Sequence record: PQ850596.1
Source of the DNA: Escherichia phage AnnaReinhart_Bas75
Strand: one strand, 5' to 3'
DNA: 43,870 bases
Below are positions 4,879 through 38,500 of this stretch, in pieces; the first letter of the stretch is position 1; every line of letters begins with the position of its first letter. The translations under genes were made by a program, and so were the position numbers. The notes beneath the pieces were generated by a model. That model made no database searches. It had not been told where the DNA came from and saw only the letters and a program-made list of their open reading frames with translations.

Positions 4879-4881
4879 TAA

Positions 4882-4905
4882 AAGGCCCCATTAAGGGGCC
4901 TTAGT
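4882..4905. terminator. bidirectional rho-independent terminator AAGGCCCC-atta-GGGGCCTT
   Basis: 8-bp GC-rich stem flanked by A-run upstream and T-run downstream; lies between convergent genes 4417..4878 (+) and 4908..5111 (-). Confidence 0.7.
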
Positions 4906-4907
4906 TT

Positions 4908-5111
4908 TCAACGGAATCTTGTGTTTAAATCCTGCTCGTGGACGACCCTCAGAACAGTGTCATAATCCCCGTATCTTCCAGGTTCAAATATATCTAATGC
5001 CTTGTAAGCAGACATTGCGTCAGGGAAAACCTGCAGAACCTTTTTAACCCGGCACAAGTCACCGTCGAACTCTTCATCGAACTCTTGAACTACTTCGCAA
5101 ATTGCATACAT
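4908..5111 (-). CDS. hypothetical small acidic protein (67 aa), single-gene minus-strand insert
   Basis: ORF with AGGAGG RBS 8 nt before ATG, own early-type promoter (5139..5167) and shared terminator; opposite orientation to flanking structural genes. Confidence 0.6.
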   Translation of the reverse strand: MYAICEVVQEFDEEFDGDLCRVKKVLQVFPDAMSAYKALDIFEPGRYGDYDTVLRVVHEQDLNTRFR

Positions 5112-5138
5112 TTTTCACCTCCTGTTTAAGTTAACTGA

Positions 5139-5167
5139 ATAGTACCCTATTATATTGGGGTGTGCAA
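5139..5167 (-). promoter_or_regulatory. sigma70-like promoter TTGCAC-N17-TACTAT containing palindrome AATAG-N4-CTATT
   Basis: Read on minus strand: TTGCAC accccaatataataggg TACTAT, then AGGAGG RBS and ATG of 4908..5111. Near-identical to sites at 14262, 37025 and 38441. Confidence 0.6.
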
Positions 5168-5442
5168 ACTATTTATTTACGTATTCCAGTTATTCCACCG
5201 AATTGTAAATGTTGGAATAAACTATTCGAATAGTTGACTTTTCACTAAAAATATGATAAGCTCCACCTGAGCTTGTGAAATATGAACAAGCGACCGCGGC
5301 GCGGGCAGGTAACGGAGCGGGACGTAAGTCCTGAGTGTAGTTACGCTGACGCGTTCGGAAGGGCCATACTCTATTGCTTGTGTAAAAAGTAACAGGTTTA
5401 CTGAGATTACGCCGTTTCTATGTTTAAATGATAAGGACTAGC

Positions 5443-5468
5443 GCCCTGCTTTAAGGCAGGGCTTTACT
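5443..5468 (+). terminator. hairpin GCCCTGC-N-GCAGGGC followed by TTTACTT
   Basis: 7-bp stem with T-rich 3' flank, immediately upstream of the Rz RBS. Confidence 0.4.
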
Positions 5469-5486
5469 TATCGAGAAAGGAGAAAC

Positions 5487-5873
5487 ATGAATCTTAAAGC
5501 AACTGTCGTAGCAGGAGCATGTTTCATCATCCTGGTTTACGCACACGGCATCTACCAGTATCGCAGCGGATGGAACGAAGGCCGGGCTAATCTCGTTTCG
5601 CAGCAACAGCAGAAAGCACAGGCTGAGTTAGCGAAGAAAACACAACGGCAGCAGCAGGATGAATCGAAGGCCGCCGCCGCTGACAACGAAGGCAAGACGA
5701 AATCAGAGGTGATTACCCGTGAAGTCGTTAAGTACATTAAAACGCCTGGTCGCAGTGTGTGCGCTTTTGACCCTGAGCGCGTGCAGCTCAAGTCCCGCGC
5801 CGTCGCAAACGCCAACTCCATCCCCGGATACGACGATGATGCAGCCGCCGTGCAAACTGGCACCGCCAAGTAG
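5487..5873 (+). CDS. Rz: i-spanin (Rz-like inner membrane spanin)
   Basis: 128 aa; N-terminal transmembrane segment (VVAGACFIILVYAHGIY), then Gln/Ala/Lys-rich predicted coiled coil; contains an embedded out-of-frame lipoprotein ORF, the hallmark Rz/Rz1 arrangement. Confidence 0.6.
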   Translation: MNLKATVVAGACFIILVYAHGIYQYRSGWNEGRANLVSQQQQKAQAELAKKTQRQQQDESKAAAADNEGKTKSEVITREVVKYIKTPGRSVCAFDPERVQLKSRAVANANSIPGYDDDAAAVQTGTAK

Positions 5874-5982
5874 CGACGCCGACGAGGATTTGGCTATCGA
5901 CGTTCAGAACGCTGAATGTGTACGGCAACTGAGGCTGAAAGTGTTTATGTTGCAGGATTACGTGAGGAATATTCTGGAATAG
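5719..5982 (+). CDS. Rz1: o-spanin (Rz1-like outer membrane lipoprotein), overlapping the 3' end of Rz in another frame
   Basis: GTG start with GAGGTGA RBS; signal peptide ending in lipobox LSAC; Pro-rich mature region (SPAPSQTPTPSP...PPC), typical of Rz1. Confidence 0.55.
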   Translation: MKSLSTLKRLVAVCALLTLSACSSSPAPSQTPTPSPDTTMMQPPCKLAPPSSDADEDLAIDVQNAECVRQLRLKVFMLQDYVRNILE

Positions 5983-6064
5983 TTGCCTTGCATGTTGGAA
6001 TAATTTATTCTTGACATGTAAATCCGGGTGGCCCGGGTTCCAACGTCCAGGGGACATACTGACT

Positions 6065-12455: not shown

Positions 12456-12460
12456 AACTA

Positions 12461-12483
12461 AGGCCCCTTTCGGGGCCTTTTTC
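12461..12483. terminator. bidirectional terminator AGGCCCC-tttc-GGGGCCT with flanking A and T runs
   Basis: Between convergent major tail gene (+) and minus-strand cassette; same stem sequence as terminators at 4882 and 24518. Confidence 0.7.
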
Positions 12484-14233: not shown

Positions 14234-14261
14234 AATTATTTCCTCAGTAAGTTACATGTGA

Positions 14262-14290
14262 ATAGTACCCTATTATATTGGGGTGTGCAA
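14262..14290 (-). promoter_or_regulatory. sigma70-like promoter TTGCAC-N17-TACTAT with AATAG-N4-CTATT palindrome
   Basis: Identical 29-bp core to 5139..5167; drives minus-strand cassette 14233..12484. Confidence 0.6.
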
Positions 14291-24517: not shown

Positions 24518-24540
24518 AAGGCCCCAAACGGGGCCTTTTC
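24518..24540. terminator. bidirectional terminator AAGGCCCC-aaac-GGGGCCTT
   Basis: Between convergent tailspike (+) and minus-strand replication-module genes; same stem as 4882 and 12461. Confidence 0.7.
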
Positions 24541-33408: not shown

Positions 33409-33437
33409 ACTATAATAGCGAACTATTCACATGTCAA
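33409..33437 (-). promoter_or_regulatory. sigma70 promoter TTGACA-N17-TATAGT with AATAG-N4-CTATT palindrome
   Basis: Minus strand reads TTGACA tgtgaatagttcgctat TATAGT; followed by conserved AAACGAGAGG leader. Confidence 0.6.
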
Positions 33438-33457
33438 TGGGCTTTTCTAAAATAATT

Positions 33458-33471
33458 AATATGGTACTATT
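33458..33471 (+). promoter_or_regulatory. second palindromic box (AATAT-ggta-CTATT) in divergent control region before the XRE gene
   Basis: Imperfect copy of the AATAG-N4-CTATT box 44 bp from the first; overlaps TACTAT that may be the -10 of the plus-strand promoter. Confidence 0.4.
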
Positions 33472-33501
33472 CACATATCAACTGACTAAGGAGTAATTGA
33501 C

Positions 33502-33717
33502 ATGCAACCATCTGAACTAGGCATCCGTGTAGAACAACGCCGCAAAGAACTCGGCATCTCCCAGCGCCGTCTGGCGGTCCTGGCTGGCGTTTCCCAGGGC
33601 GCGATTAACCAGCTTGCGCTCGGGGTAACTCAGGACGTCCGGCCGGCGACGCTGTTCAAGCTGGCGGAAGTGCTACAAGTAGACGCCAAGTGGCTGGCGT
33701 TAGGTGAAGGGGCTTAA
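33502..33717 (+). CDS. XRE-family (Cro/CI-type) HTH transcriptional regulator
   Basis: 71 aa; classic HTH_3 signature LGISQRRLAVLAGVSQGAINQLALG; AAGGAG RBS; only plus-strand gene inside the minus-strand replication module. Confidence 0.8.
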   Translation: MQPSELGIRVEQRRKELGISQRRLAVLAGVSQGAINQLALGVTQDVRPATLFKLAEVLQVDAKWLALGEGA

Positions 33718-36136: not shown

Positions 36137-36427
36137 TTACCGTTTAGCCAACCCTTCCAGCAAATTTTTATACTCTTCAAAATATTCCTCGACCAAATCA
36201 TCGCCGAAATAGAAGTCGATATACTCGAGATTATCTCTTACGTTAAGCGATGCCGACATGGTGCTTAGTTGGCGTAAGCTAATTAGCTTCATTTCTGTTT
36301 CTACGCAGAAAGGCCGGTAGGTATCAAGATGGCAAGAGATATTGAAGCATAAAGCGAACTCTCCGGCCACGGAGTGAACCATATACACTTCGTTTTCTGC
36401 TTTATTGTGGAAAATTACGCCTTTCAT
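36137..36427 (-). CDS. hypothetical protein (96 aa)
   Basis: Start overlaps stop of upstream HTH gene; acidic C-terminus. Confidence 0.5.
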   Translation of the reverse strand: MKGVIFHNKAENEVYMVHSVAGEFALCFNISCHLDTYRPFCVETEMKLISLRQLSTMSASLNVRDNLEYIDFYFGDDLVEEYFEEYKNLLEGLAKR

Positions 36428-36606
36428 TTCACGTTCTCCTTAATCCATGCTTCGACTTTATTACGGTCAAATGTTCCCGGTAAACGGCGGCCCATAACCT
36501 TAATACAGCAGTCAGGGAATTTGCCGCTGCGCAACCAGTTATTAATCGTCTGACGTGTCACCCCGATACGTTCAGCTACTTCATTCTGCGTCATATAATG
36601 CGACAT
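36424..36606 (-). CDS. AlpA/excisionase-type HTH DNA-binding protein
   Basis: 60 aa from ATG 36606 (CAGGAGATATAAAAATG); motif TQNEVAERIGVTRQTINNWLRSGKFP. ORF-track version extends to 36720 but lacks RBS. Confidence 0.6.
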   Translation of the reverse strand: MSHYMTQNEVAERIGVTRQTINNWLRSGKFPDCCIKVMGRRLPGTFDRNKVEAWIKENVK

Positions 36607-36703
36607 TTTTATATCTCCTGTTTGTTTGGTGAAACTGAGTATAGGATAGCGGGAATGTAAAAGCAACCAATCTCTGTAATATTTAATCTTTACAAAAATG
36701 TTA

Positions 36704-36733
36704 TTGAAAGTTCTTGACACATGTTTGTATAAT
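36704..36733 (+). promoter_or_regulatory. candidate sigma70 promoter TTGAAA-N18-TATAAT
   Basis: Good -35/-10 with 18-bp spacer; no protein-coding gene follows for about 350 bp. Confidence 0.4.
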
Positions 36734-36757
36734 GGTTTTGGGACTTGTATATATTAC

Positions 36758-36795
36758 GGAGTTGACGAACCCTCCCCGAGGGATTCGTCAACTCC
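36758..36795 (+). other. long inverted repeat / RNA hairpin (17 bp stem with one bulge, CCC loop)
   Basis: GGAGTTGACGAA-CCCTC ccc GAGGG-a-TTCGTCAACTCC read directly from sequence. Confidence 0.6.
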
Positions 36796-36932
36796 TCCCA
36801 GACAGCTGAGATGCTTGCCTTGGGGTTTAAGGATAAGTGTATCTAAATCTCATTTAAAGAAGTAACCCGCTGAAATATCTACTGTTTCTTAATGTGCCGT
36901 AGATTCGCAACCGTAAAAATGTAACGATTATT

Positions 36933-36955
36933 GGGCAGGCTTAAGCCTGCCCTTT
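36933..36955 (+). terminator. hairpin GGGCAGGC-ttaa-GCCTGCCC followed by TTTAGTT
   Basis: Perfect 8-bp stem, plus-strand orientation, in a non-coding region. Confidence 0.5.
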
Positions 36956-37024
36956 AGTTACCAAGTAATAAGAATAAAGGCACAACCCTCCCCGAAGAAT
37001 CACAACGGCAACGTAACTATTCTC

Positions 37025-37053
37025 TTGCACACCCCAATATAATAGGATACTAT
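37025..37053 (+). promoter_or_regulatory. sigma70-like promoter TTGCAC-N17-TACTAT with AATAG-N4-CTATT palindrome
   Basis: Near-identical to 5139 and 14262 copies; followed by CGAAACGAGA leader, AGAGGAG RBS and ATG 37088. Confidence 0.6.
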
Positions 37054-37087
37054 TCACTTATCGAAACGAGACAGAGGAGTGGTGGTT

Positions 37088-38440: not shown

Positions 38441-38469
38441 TTGCACACTAAGATAGAATAGGCTACTAT
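38441..38469 (+). promoter_or_regulatory. sigma70-like promoter TTGCAC-N17-TACTAT with AATAG-N4-CTATT palindrome
   Basis: TTGCAC actaagatagaataggc TACTAT; followed by ACAAACGAGAGGAG leader and ATG 38501. Confidence 0.6.
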
Positions 38470-38500
38470 TCATTTACACAAACGAGAGGAGAGACGGAAG

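Follow-up and report, generated by a model that had tools for sequence, protein, structure and literature searches.

The 43,870-nucleotide stretch of DNA analyzed here (the window) is the complete genome of Escherichia phage AnnaReinhart_Bas75 (PQ850596.1), a Kagunavirus of the Guernseyvirinae that is ~99% identical to the BASEL phage Bas76. The Guernseyvirinae (Kagunavirus and Jerseyvirus) are among the most frequently isolated phages of E. coli K1 and Salmonella and are found in biocontrol products as well as in the BASEL reference collection; we know of no study to date of how their transcription is controlled.

A bidirectional terminator closes the terminase-to-Hoc genes and stands just before the promoter described below. 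The RNA that is the subject of this work is flanked by this post-Hoc terminator (4882-4903) and by Rz, with one gene of opposite orientation in between. Because the terminator and the oppositely oriented gene precede the RNA, the Rz operon requires a promoter of its own. The genes headed by the leader are Rz/Rz1, the scaffold, the major capsid and the downstream structural genes; of the lysis genes, only the spanins lie downstream of it, not the holin and the endolysin, and the late operon contains few internal terminators that would demand antitermination. The published Kagunavirus RNA-seq is given at the gene level only and is uninformative for the leader region (PMC12645636). The features of the locus are listed below with the basis of each in brackets; A, B and C denote diverged leader groups.

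5182-5233, no strand assigned: operator-like repeats (sequence; arrangement kept in groups A, B and C), namely TATTCC in two copies (5182 and 5191), the palindrome GGAATAAACTATTC (5214-5227) and the repeat CTATTCGAATAG (5222-5233)
5234-5262, plus strand: sigma-70 extended −10 promoter (sequence, conserved geometry)
5234-5239, plus strand: −35 element TTGACT (sequence)
between −35 and −10, plus strand: 17-bp promoter spacer with TG at 5254-5255, positions −15/−14 (sequence)
5257-5262, plus strand: −10 element TAAGCT, in extended form TGaTAAGCT (sequence)
5269-5486, plus strand: non-coding leader RNA of 218 nt, running from the predicted start to the base preceding the Rz ATG (covariance model R1)
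5271-5291, plus strand: P1, 5′-terminal hairpin GCTTGT/ACAAGC, 5271-5276 with 5286-5291 (covariation)
5282-5392, plus strand: 36-codon ORF, a hypothetical protein in the records of Bas76, Schulenburg, fBC-Eco01 and others
5294-5358, plus strand: P2-P3-P4, long GC-rich irregular hairpin, 65 nt (covariation)
5294-5296/5356-5358 and 5298-5303/5350-5355, plus strand: P2 (covariation)
5306-5308/5346-5348 and 5309-5313/5340-5344, plus strand: P3 (covariation)
between P3 and P4, plus strand: 4x6 internal loop GGAG/AGTGTA (fold)
5318-5323/5328-5333, plus strand: P4, ending in a GTAA tetraloop (covariation)
5357-5426, plus strand: linker with conserved motifs lacking supported pairing (sequence conservation)
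5357-5365, 5370-5376, 5403-5415 and 5420-5426, plus strand: conserved linker motifs GGAAGGGCC, TCTATTG, GAGATTACGCCGT and ATGTTTA, respectively
5429-5473, plus strand: P7, long 3′ hairpin, 45 nt (covariation)
5429-5435 with 5467-5473, plus strand: P7 lower stem TGATAAG/CTTATCG (covariation)
5439-5441 with 5464-5466, plus strand: P7 middle TAG/TTA (covariation)
5443-5450 with 5455-5462, plus strand: P7 GC-rich tip (covariation)
5479-5482, plus strand: Shine-Dalgarno GGAG of the i-spanin Rz (sequence)
5487, plus strand: start ATG of Rz (i-spanin); Shine-Dalgarno and ATG together occupy 5479-5489 (sequence)

The initial annotation, made from this sequence alone, had proposed a promoter TTGACT-N17-TAAGCT upstream of Rz with a weak −10. 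The element is present with its 17-bp spacer, at slightly corrected coordinates (5234-5262), and the −10 hexamer does agree with the consensus at only three of six bases, which is why a simple promoter scan omitted the site; what had been missed is the conserved TG extension. With a −35-like hexamer, a spacer within the 17 ± 1 bp range, TG at −15/−14, T at −12, A at −11 and T at −7, the site has the composition of an extended −10 promoter. Simple scanning would be expected to return ~1.6 such promoter-like sites per 1.4 kb by chance. However, all 20 distinct homologous promoters, drawn from three diverged leader groups, share the 17-bp spacer, the TG at −15/−14 and a −10 of the form TAnnCT, and this invariant geometry settles that the promoter is real despite the chance-level match of the single sequence. 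The depositors of fBC-Eco01 had predicted a host promoter at the same position. Transcription by the host RNA polymerase would probably start at ~5269-5270. The upstream repeats, which are presumed to bind a phage DNA-binding regulator, were not found at the early-operon copy of the promoter carried by some relatives (see below). A sigma-70-dependent pause element was also considered, and rejected from the sequence, as the −10-like repeats are too near the start site compared with the lambda and phage 82 arrangement.

Base composition changes along the locus, from a GC fraction of 0.28-0.33 in the promoter region to 0.53-0.60 over 5250-5369 and back to 0.32 over 5370-5429. The segment between promoter and terminal hairpin, initially described as GC-rich, is so in its 5′ half only, and this GC-rich part turned out to be the 65-nt covarying hairpin P2-P3-P4. 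The linker motifs are invariant or nearly so across 26 group A sequences and are also present in group B, while no candidate helix inside the linker has covariation support. A helix P6 (5414-5421 with 5431-5439) was discarded, being 85% paired with no covariation. P7 terminates just 5′ of the Shine-Dalgarno in all groups, its 3′ end standing 13 nt from the Rz ATG in the window and 13-17 nt in groups A, B and C. A further helix might close the 3′ region (GTTTCT at 5414-5419 with AGAAAC at 5481-5486), but it is AU-rich and has one covarying pair, with slid controls 65-84% paired; sequestration of the Shine-Dalgarno-AUG spacer by this helix, as predicted for group A, is therefore retained solely as a possibility.

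When groups A, B and C were aligned with MAFFT alone, the stems were misaligned and RNAalifold could not be used; per-group folds, a hand-derived structure and the covariance model R1 took its place. In alignment A4, fitted to the model, 97.9% of the cells were paired and 21 of the 47 pairs had changed on both sides (slid controls, 0-4); none of 500 shuffles matched the real score. In alignment A5, fitted likewise and with the early-operon copies added, 17 of the 29 pairs in the 5′ domain had changed on both sides and 96.4% of the cells were paired (slid controls, 2-6 pairs and 29-42%). Even within group A, where the MAFFT alignment was not fitted to the structure, five pairs had changed on both sides (slid controls, 0-1). 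Much of this covariation separates few clades, so the independent compensatory events are fewer than the cell counts imply.

Four of the six P1 pairs differ on both sides between groups (GCUUGU/ACAAGC vs ACGCU/AGCGU), P4 occurs with at least six different stem sequences, and P7 has 7 of its 18 pairs changed on both sides with 96-99% of the cells paired. The GCCCTGC/GCAGGGC hairpin noted at the outset is real (5443-5462): it is matched by compensatory variants among relatives, GCCCCGC/GCGGGGC and GCCCGGC/GCCGGGC. The helices were 97.9% paired when read as the plus strand vs 87.1% as the minus strand, and the 189 G·U cells place the RNA on the plus strand. Folding and covariation across related phages, which the initial annotation had suggested as a check, support the fold, and the element is conserved in relatives. 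Taken together, these comparisons leave us highly confident that the plus strand of the locus encodes a genuine RNA that is structured and non-coding.

We then analyzed the distribution of this RNA. Model R1 has exactly one match in the window, at 282 bits, and its homologues reach 209-286 bits (group A) or 69-78 bits (group B). The phage collection contains 181 group A and 269 group B records of the RNA (~450 sequenced phages), each with a single late copy whose place is in every case immediately before the ribosome-binding site of Rz. Matches in IMG/VR were confined to Guernseyvirinae-sized contigs; there, a loose gapped pattern scan gave mostly chance matches in GC-rich contigs and was usable only after filtering with R1. 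The leaders of groups C and D were not detected by R1: they have the promoter or its position and some motifs in common, but a different RNA. The leader matches no described RNA family: whether the window or any of seven related loci was searched, no Rfam release 15 family attained its gathering score (best sub-threshold E-values of 1.3-9), and no tRNA or tmRNA was found by ARAGORN in the window, nor any tRNA in relatives.

Some Kagunaviruses carry the promoter and 5′ module twice, the additional copy heading the early operon; it scores 55-113 bits in L121, L099, SHAK7858, Golestan, G AB-2017 and Snoke. The module common to both contexts consists of P1, P2-P4, GGAAGGGYC and UCUAUUG, the last two motifs being retained partly in group C as well. 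In the early operon, a terminator-like hairpin comes next and, after it, a promoter element of its own; late and early copies are unlike in their 3′ halves. The recurrence of promoter and 5′ module at the early operon shows that Rz is no fixed partner of the module. In the window, R1 finds a single copy and the early leader is without the module, so a general need for it at operon heads cannot be claimed for this phage.

The initial annotation had also described a hairpin with a T-rich tail at 5443-5468. This terminator-like hairpin is present, but it is only the tip of the 45-nt stem P7, and its U-tract is not kept in relatives. The tip (GCCCTGCT/GGCAGGGC, 5443-5462) has 8 bp, a 4-nt loop and a ΔG of −15.7 kcal/mol, the stable GC-rich stem of an intrinsic terminator, and is followed by TTTACTTATC, which doubles as the 3′ strand of the covarying P7 lower stem. 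The tail of the window, UUUACUUAU, begins with three U's and has five U's in 8 nt; weak as this U-tract is in group A, the hairpin is comparable there, in stability and tail, to the other terminators of this genome, and the fBC-Eco01 depositors had an ARNold terminator predicted at P7. In group B the tail is degenerate (TTAGCGTAT; UUAGCGUAU), and in group C (UGUUACGA) the U-tract is absent. This loss favors read-through, as expected of a leader, over a dedicated small-RNA terminator. An antiterminator pairing of GGAAGGGCC with the 5′ arm of the P7 tip was rejected, since it comprises just 4-5 bp, is weaker in the commoner GCCCCGC variant and, by inspection, does not keep its orientation in group C; the search for alternative antiterminator pairings in the leader gave none backed by covariation.

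Our main reading, to which we give a probability of about 0.5, is that the non-coding RNA is a cis-acting leader governing passage through P7 into the Rz-capsid operon. We lean slightly towards the broader proposition that the RNA acts mainly in cis as a leader. That its cis action would be on terminator read-through or processivity, of the put or nut kind, rather than on stability, processing or translation, is a tentative suggestion. Under this scheme, a phage DNA-binding protein would time the leader promoter via the GGAATA/TATTCC repeats, the host RNA polymerase would start at ~5269, and the nascent 5′ module would act in cis, either on the transcript that carries it or on the complex transcribing it. 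The module would thereby set the share of transcription that passes the terminator-like P7 into the operon, and P7 itself would define the surroundings in which the Rz ribosome-binding site lies. Where the transcript starts and ends, and its read-through, are predictions from sequence features.

The strongest competitor, which we consider possible but clearly less probable than cis action as a whole, is that transcription stops at the P7 tip and yields a free-standing small RNA of ~195-205 nt with a role in trans. Such an RNA might, for instance, sequester a protein of the host or base-pair with mRNAs of host or phage. A small RNA or a spanin leader had been offered from the start; that a plus-strand non-coding RNA is made here is supported, while a cis leader and a trans small RNA are not separable from sequence. 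The RNA has its own conserved promoter and, in group A, a hairpin like the genome's terminators, and its invariant single-stranded motifs (GGAAGGGCC, UCUAUUG and GAUUACGCCGU) are such as would be expected of a seed or a protein-binding site. In the early copies a separate promoter for the downstream genes follows the module and hairpin, so read-through is not obviously needed there and a stand-alone RNA fits too. However, the U-tract fades from group A to group C as described, the tail belongs to the covarying P7 lower stem, the distance from P7 to the Rz ribosome-binding site is fixed, and the 3′ halves differ between late and early copies. Complementary targets in the Rz start region and the 1.4 kb downstream were no better than shuffles or chance: when the conserved GAUU(A)CG motif was paired with the region around the Rz start codon, the duplex energies were no better than those of shuffled leaders, and a search for antisense targets in the manner of P4 CI or P1 C4 RNA gave only GC-driven or 7-nt matches.

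Small RNAs from late leaders have a precedent, as the short PR′-tR′ transcript of lambdoid phages is the regulatory sRNA StxS in Stx phages (PMC7547250). The lambda PR′-tR′ unit (6S RNA) and StxS resemble the present locus in the succession of a promoter, an untranslated RNA of ~200 nt, a hairpin terminator, and lysis followed by head and tail genes, and in that the short transcript may itself be functional (PMC7547250). Unlike the lambda unit, the leader has a weak, unconserved terminator tail and an extensive covarying structure, and it precedes the spanins only. A scan of ten candidate phage proteins for a Q- or N-like protein or other antiterminator found no such homologue, only two HTH regulators (ORFs at 33502-33717 and 36424-36720).

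A post-transcriptional cis leader, which we regard as rather improbable, would use the long irregular hairpins as stabilizers or as sites for RNase III or other processing. P1 would shield against 5′-end-dependent decay, and P7 would protect the transcript near the ribosome-binding site or tune Rz translation. Such roles are played by the leaders and RNase III sites of T7 and by the lambda N leader. Like these, the hairpins here are long and irregular, with an asymmetric internal loop and a position just upstream of the ribosome-binding site, and early as well as late units contain them. In all three groups A, B and C a 5′ hairpin begins at +2 or +3, P7 ends immediately 5′ of the Shine-Dalgarno in all groups, and the spacer to the AUG is predicted to be paired in group A. 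The P2-P4 stack of ~23 bp, with its conserved asymmetric internal loop, and the ~18 bp of P7 would be compatible with RNase III signal geometry (an irregular duplex of at least ~20 bp with an internal loop). On the other hand, the upper stem is short (6 bp), and invariant single-stranded motifs are no feature of RNase III sites and are seldom needed by stabilizing hairpins. The closing helix, with its one covarying pair, is poorly distinct from slid controls, and the predicted accessibility of the ribosome-binding site is unequal among groups A, B and C. Control specific to Rz translation is further at odds with the reuse of the same 5′ module ahead of unrelated early genes.

The two remaining alternatives are far weaker. 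Guernseyvirinae genomes are mosaic, and Kagunavirus shares the group A leader, together with a similar Hoc-like gene, with only a subset of Jerseyvirus, so that a DNA-level element or a functionless spacer conserved through recent recombination could be imagined. Such an explanation is very improbable, and the initial suggestion of simple spacer DNA is refuted: phages of E. coli and of Salmonella share 92-100% identity across the leader segment vs 66-84% across the flanking genes, the leader is 94% conserved vs 83-87% for the adjoining Hoc gene of the same module, six helices are kept paired by compensatory changes across groups no longer alignable by BLAST, and the G·U pairs are strand-specific. 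Least credible of all is a small protein-coding gene, the 36-aa ORF (initially judged unconvincing, and now corrected to 5282-5392), since, although most group A genomes keep it whole and several records list it as a hypothetical protein, it has no upstream Shine-Dalgarno, has its ATG inside the P1 loop, is frameshifted or cut to 9-17 aa in L003, L013, L016 and L020, has lost its ATG in L030, L121 and L099 and its stop (with extension) in L021 and L038, is absent from groups B and C, and undergoes substitutions that maintain base pairs rather than codons.

If the RNA is a cis-acting leader, HK022 put would be among its closest counterparts. The putL and putR sites are cis-acting antiterminator RNAs that need no protein; the put RNA binds the β′ zinc-binding domain of RNA polymerase and suppresses termination, and putL/putR, like lambda nutL/nutR, are copies at two operon heads (PMC9378689), as are the early and late copies of the module in some relatives. 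Both elements are promoter-proximal, with putL pairing from nucleotide 3 and the leader P1 from +3, and both are built of stem-loops interrupted by bulges and by internal loops of non-canonical type. The two also have paralogous copies heading two operons (for the leader, only in some relatives) and terminators or terminator-like hairpins downstream, then a long operon, and neither has an identified dedicated protein partner. They differ in the size of the module (~90-110 nt for the leader, ~70 nt for put) and in the phages that carry them, virulent siphoviruses as opposed to lambdoid phages, the window having the late copy only. There is no homology in sequence or structure, and R1 had no match in the HK022 genome at E-values up to 10.

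By this analogy one might speculate, at low odds, that the promoter, P1, P2-P3-P4 and the GGAAGGGYC/UCUAUUG tail form a self-contained, protein-independent antitermination or processivity cassette. It would be a new, unrelated functional analogue of HK022 put, swapped by virulent Guernseyvirinae phages between their early and late operon heads, and would cause the host RNA polymerase to ignore the terminator-like hairpin that follows and the terminators beyond.

Whatever its mode of action, the leader can now be described as an RNA family backed by covariation, for which coordinates, a structure and a model are available; it is present in ~450 deposited genomes, unannotated there or labeled as a hypothetical protein. 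Its position at the promoter of the spanin, scaffold and capsid genes offers a direct handle on late gene expression, and its reuse at the early operon of some relatives makes a general transcriptional role testable. The minimum gain is a corrected annotation and, for phage engineering, a defined unit of promoter and leader; at most, if the cassette proposal is true, this RNA would be a second, independent case of RNA-only antitermination.

The window is a complete phage genome. Its stretch 4880-5990, which includes the region under study, shares 99.4% identity with Escherichia phage vB_Ec_DUEC01 and 99.3% with BASEL phage Bas76; it has matches in ~300 records of Escherichia and Salmonella phages, which fall in Guernseyvirinae (Kagunavirus, Jerseyvirus). 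The features of the region are listed below, the gene order being read from the Bas76 map.

before the region, plus strand: terminase, portal, head-morphogenesis and Hoc-like genes (Bas76 map)
4882-4903, both strands: bidirectional terminator AAGGCCCC...GGGGCCTT, closing the Hoc-like gene
4908-5111, minus strand: one short gene between the Hoc-like gene and the region (Bas76 map)
5234-5239 and 5257-5262, plus strand: promoter, -35 TTGACT, 17-bp spacer, -10 TAAGCT (from the sequence)
5269-5486, plus strand: leader RNA, from the inferred start to the base before the Rz ATG
5271-5276 with 5286-5291, plus strand: helix P1
5294-5296 with 5356-5358 and 5298-5303 with 5350-5355, plus strand: helix P2
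5306-5308 with 5346-5348 and 5309-5313 with 5340-5344, plus strand: helix P3
5318-5323 with 5328-5333, plus strand: helix P4, closed by a GUAA loop
5429-5435 with 5467-5473, 5439-5441 with 5464-5466 and 5443-5450 with 5455-5462, plus strand: helix P7
after the region, up to ~24 kb, plus strand: Rz/Rz1, scaffold, major capsid and tail genes (Bas76 map)
after the tail genes, minus strand: replication genes (Bas76 map)
from ~36.7 kb, plus strand: early cluster including holin and endolysin (Bas76 map)

The region consists of a regulated-looking promoter followed by a structured plus-strand RNA without an ORF, fixed at the head of the Rz-capsid operon, and the 5' part of this leader is reused as a module. 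Because the bidirectional terminator closes the Hoc-like gene, the Rz-to-tail operon needs its own promoter. Three near-identical terminators of this kind (AAGGCCCC-N4-5-GGGGCCTT; 4882-4903, 12460-12479 and 24518-24537) mark the borders of plus- and minus-strand gene blocks. The slot between the first of them and the leader promoter (4904-5135) holds minus-strand cargo that varies among phages (the window and four related loci, L002-L005): a 67-aa ORF in the window and elsewhere a clamp-like protein, endonuclease VII, two small ORFs or nothing, with an HNH endonuclease inserted nearby in Schulenburg. The leader is kept in every phage compared, whatever the cargo. Downstream, the o-spanin frame from GTG 5719 (5719-5982) encodes a signal peptide with the lipobox LSAC (MKSLSTLKRLVAVCALLTLSAC...); since the o-spanin annotated in Bas76 and other records (5839-5982 only) lacks both, its start has probably been placed too far downstream.

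The promoter proposed in the initial annotation is present, and a TG at 5254-5255, overlooked there, makes it an extended -10 promoter. We compared 20 distinct sequences from groups A, B and C, three of the four leader types (A-D) found at the Rz position in related phages, the window being of group A. All 20 have a -35 of the form T[TGA]GA[CT]T, a 17-bp spacer with TG at -15/-14, and a -10 reading TAAGCT, TACGCT or TAACCT, in which T-12, A-11 and T-7 are retained. For fBC-Eco01, the authors of the record had, independently of this work, already placed a predicted host promoter and a predicted terminator at the corresponding sites (PMC9825357). Upstream, groups A, B and C all retain a pair of TATTCC repeats together with the palindromes GGAATAAACTATTC and CTATTCGAATAG. 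A related array, with two GGAATA repeats (GGAATATTCTGGAATA ...) and then GGAATAATTTATTC-TTGACA, precedes the scaffold gene (5966-6016); no recognisable -10 follows its TTGACA, and the array could be an additional site for regulator binding or a promoter within the operon. We read these arrays as putative operator sites for a phage regulator; the genome encodes two HTH proteins (33502-33717, HTH_3; 36424-36720, HTH_17), either of which could bind the repeats.

A separate 32-nt repeat, TGAATAGTACCCTATTATATTGGGGTGTGCAA, occurs exactly or with one mismatch at 5136-5167 (plus), 14259-14290 (plus) and 37025-37056 (minus), with partial copies at 33411-33473 and 38457-38472. It corresponds to the fBC-Eco01 "phage promoter" consensus tgAATAGTa-ccTATTat-T; a phage RNA polymerase gene is absent. 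Its opposite strand reads TTGCAC-17-TACTAT, facing the minus-strand insert genes (4908-5111 and a block at ~12.2-14.0 kb) and the early genes from 37069, and the repeat probably serves as a promoter for the host polymerase and includes a palindromic operator.

Conservation in relatives, without which the initial annotation would have given up the element, is high: across 5182-5486, 50-nt windows of the intergenic sequence show 92-100% identity to Salmonella Jerseyviruses such as LSPA1 and FSL SP-101, whereas identity in the adjacent Rz, Rz1 and scaffold sequences falls to 64-84%. The group A form occurs in 181 phage records. Group B (SETP3-type Jerseyviruses, 269 records) has an intergenic spacer of equal length and, by eye, the same architecture with different stem sequences, and BLAST matches it to group A over the first 59 nt only. 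Groups C (including FSL SP-038/049, phiEap-2, pink and Hafnia TS33) and D (including Pantoea AH01 and loci L052-L054) carry different leaders in this position. In group C the promoter type, a hairpin at the 5' end, a second hairpin of the form GUAAC...GUAA...GUUAC and the GGAAGGGYC motif are retained.

Helices were derived from separate folds of each group and inspection of the alignments. The covariance model R1, trained on 26 leader sequences of group A, gives a single hit in the window (282 bits) and recovers group B at 69-78 bits (E ~1e-15). The covariation check across related phages, suggested by the initial annotation, showed every helix to covary. In a model-fitted alignment of 37 distinct sequences, 97.9% of cells are paired and both sides have changed in 21 of the 47 pairs, against 34-40% and 0-4 pairs in slid controls, and the observed covariation score was not attained in any of 500 shuffles; many of these changes split only a few clades, and the cell counts therefore overstate the number of independent events. 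The unfitted MAFFT alignment of group A alone gave 98.8% paired cells and both sides changed in 5 of 47 pairs (0-1 when slid). Six positions are mostly G·U, and pairing within the helices is 97.9% for the plus strand vs 87.1% when read as minus, which indicates that the RNA is made from the plus strand. Between P2 and P7, GGAAGGGCC, UCUAUUG, GAGAUUACGCCGU and AUGUUUA are invariant or nearly so, and no helix involving them gained support.

The enclosed segment had been described as GC-rich, which holds for its 5' half (0.53-0.60 over 5250-5369) but not for 5370-5429, where GC is ~0.3, as in the promoter region. The 36-codon ORF (5282-5392), whose ATG sits in the P1 loop, indeed lacks a Shine-Dalgarno sequence. 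It is ruled out as a protein: among related loci it is shortened to 9 or 17 codons (L003, L020, L013), frameshifted (L016), deprived of its ATG (L030 and the early-operon copies of L121 and L099) or read past its stop (L021, L038), and it is not present in groups B and C.

Filtering extra IMG/VR loci with R1 uncovered a second, diverged copy in two genomes (L121, 12349-12170; L099, 11917-11730; 83-87 bits). By BLAST of the phage collection (234 places in 180 records), ~54 Kagunavirus records have this second place, including phiEc4, fFiEco03, SHAK7858, Golestan, G AB-2017 and Snoke. The SHAK7858 record (OR594183.1, vB_EcoM_SHAK7858; our H144/L250) carries the taxonomy line Autographiviridae; Kayfunavirus, yet in this region both sequence and gene order match a Kagunavirus, and it is likely mislabelled. 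The second copy lies between a divergent HTH_17 regulator gene and the early cluster. It has the same promoter (TTGACT-17-TG[c/g]TAAGCT) without the GGAATA repeats, and holds P1, P2-P4, GGRAGGVCC and UCUAUUG; P7 is replaced by another terminator-like hairpin, followed by a 32-nt promoter element and the first early gene. Adding these copies to a model-fitted alignment strengthens the covariation of the 5' domain: 96.4% of cells are paired (29-42% in slid controls) and both sides have changed in 17 of 29 pairs, with up to four pair types per position and at least six different sequences of the P4 stem. In the early-copy leaders of Golestan, G AB-2017 and Snoke, a (CTCA)n run between the 5' module and the next hairpin varies from ~6-7 copies to 3 (L251, ~700-735; L252 and L253, ~700-720).

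The window's own early operon (36703-37068) opens with an untranslated structured leader of ~300 nt (36703-37020; fold z-score -5.2) different from the R1 type, with an 18-bp hairpin at ~36758-36798 and a P7-like hairpin, GGGCAGGCTTAAGCCTGCCC+TTTAG, at 36925-36955 (R1 match, 23.7 bits). Its promoter motif, CTTGACACATGTTTGTATAAT, also heads the group D Rz leaders (L052-L054, Pantoea AH01). Promoter-leader cassettes have thus moved between early and late operon heads within the subfamily, and the 5' module is accordingly not an Rz-specific element.

The hairpin noted downstream of the promoter is there, a GC-rich 8-bp stem (5443-5462) followed by TTTACTTATC, and the P7 tip (dG -15.7, tail UUUACUUAU) is akin to the phage's other terminators. 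However, the tail is the 3' strand of the covarying lower P7 stem, is degenerate in group B (UUAGCGUAU) and not U-rich in group C, and the distance from the end of P7 to the Rz ATG is 13-17 nt in every case. P7 would thus be a leaky terminator at most, and we regard it as a structural element beside the ribosome-binding site. Among candidate helices within the leader, no alternative pairing was found that would make P7 a classical attenuator.

We infer a cis-acting leader, one that works on the transcript to which it belongs or on the complex transcribing it and would thereby set passage through the next hairpin, hence how strongly the operon is expressed. In its layout it resembles HK022 putL/putR and lambda nutL/nutR (PMC9378689): a nascent two-stem-loop RNA from +3, purine-rich internal loops, paralogues at two operon heads (in relatives) and a terminator-like hairpin next. 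As R1 finds no match in the HK022 genome, the leader appears not to be homologous to put. No Q- or N-like protein was found among ten proteins scanned, and internal terminators are sparse in the late operon.

The chief alternative is a small RNA that is released and acts in trans, for which StxS from a lambdoid PR'-tR' unit is a precedent (PMC7547250). The separate promoter that follows the early-operon copies favours this alternative; against it stand the U-tracts, which are poor and not retained across groups, and the target searches, which gave no convincing candidates in the Rz start region or in 1.4 kb downstream. A processing or stability role, through RNase III-type hairpins and a protective 5' hairpin, is compatible with the data.

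No Rfam family matches the leader and the literature that could be searched does not mention it. The RNA family is new, whereas its general type, a phage leader or non-coding RNA close to a promoter, is familiar, and its function is directly testable.
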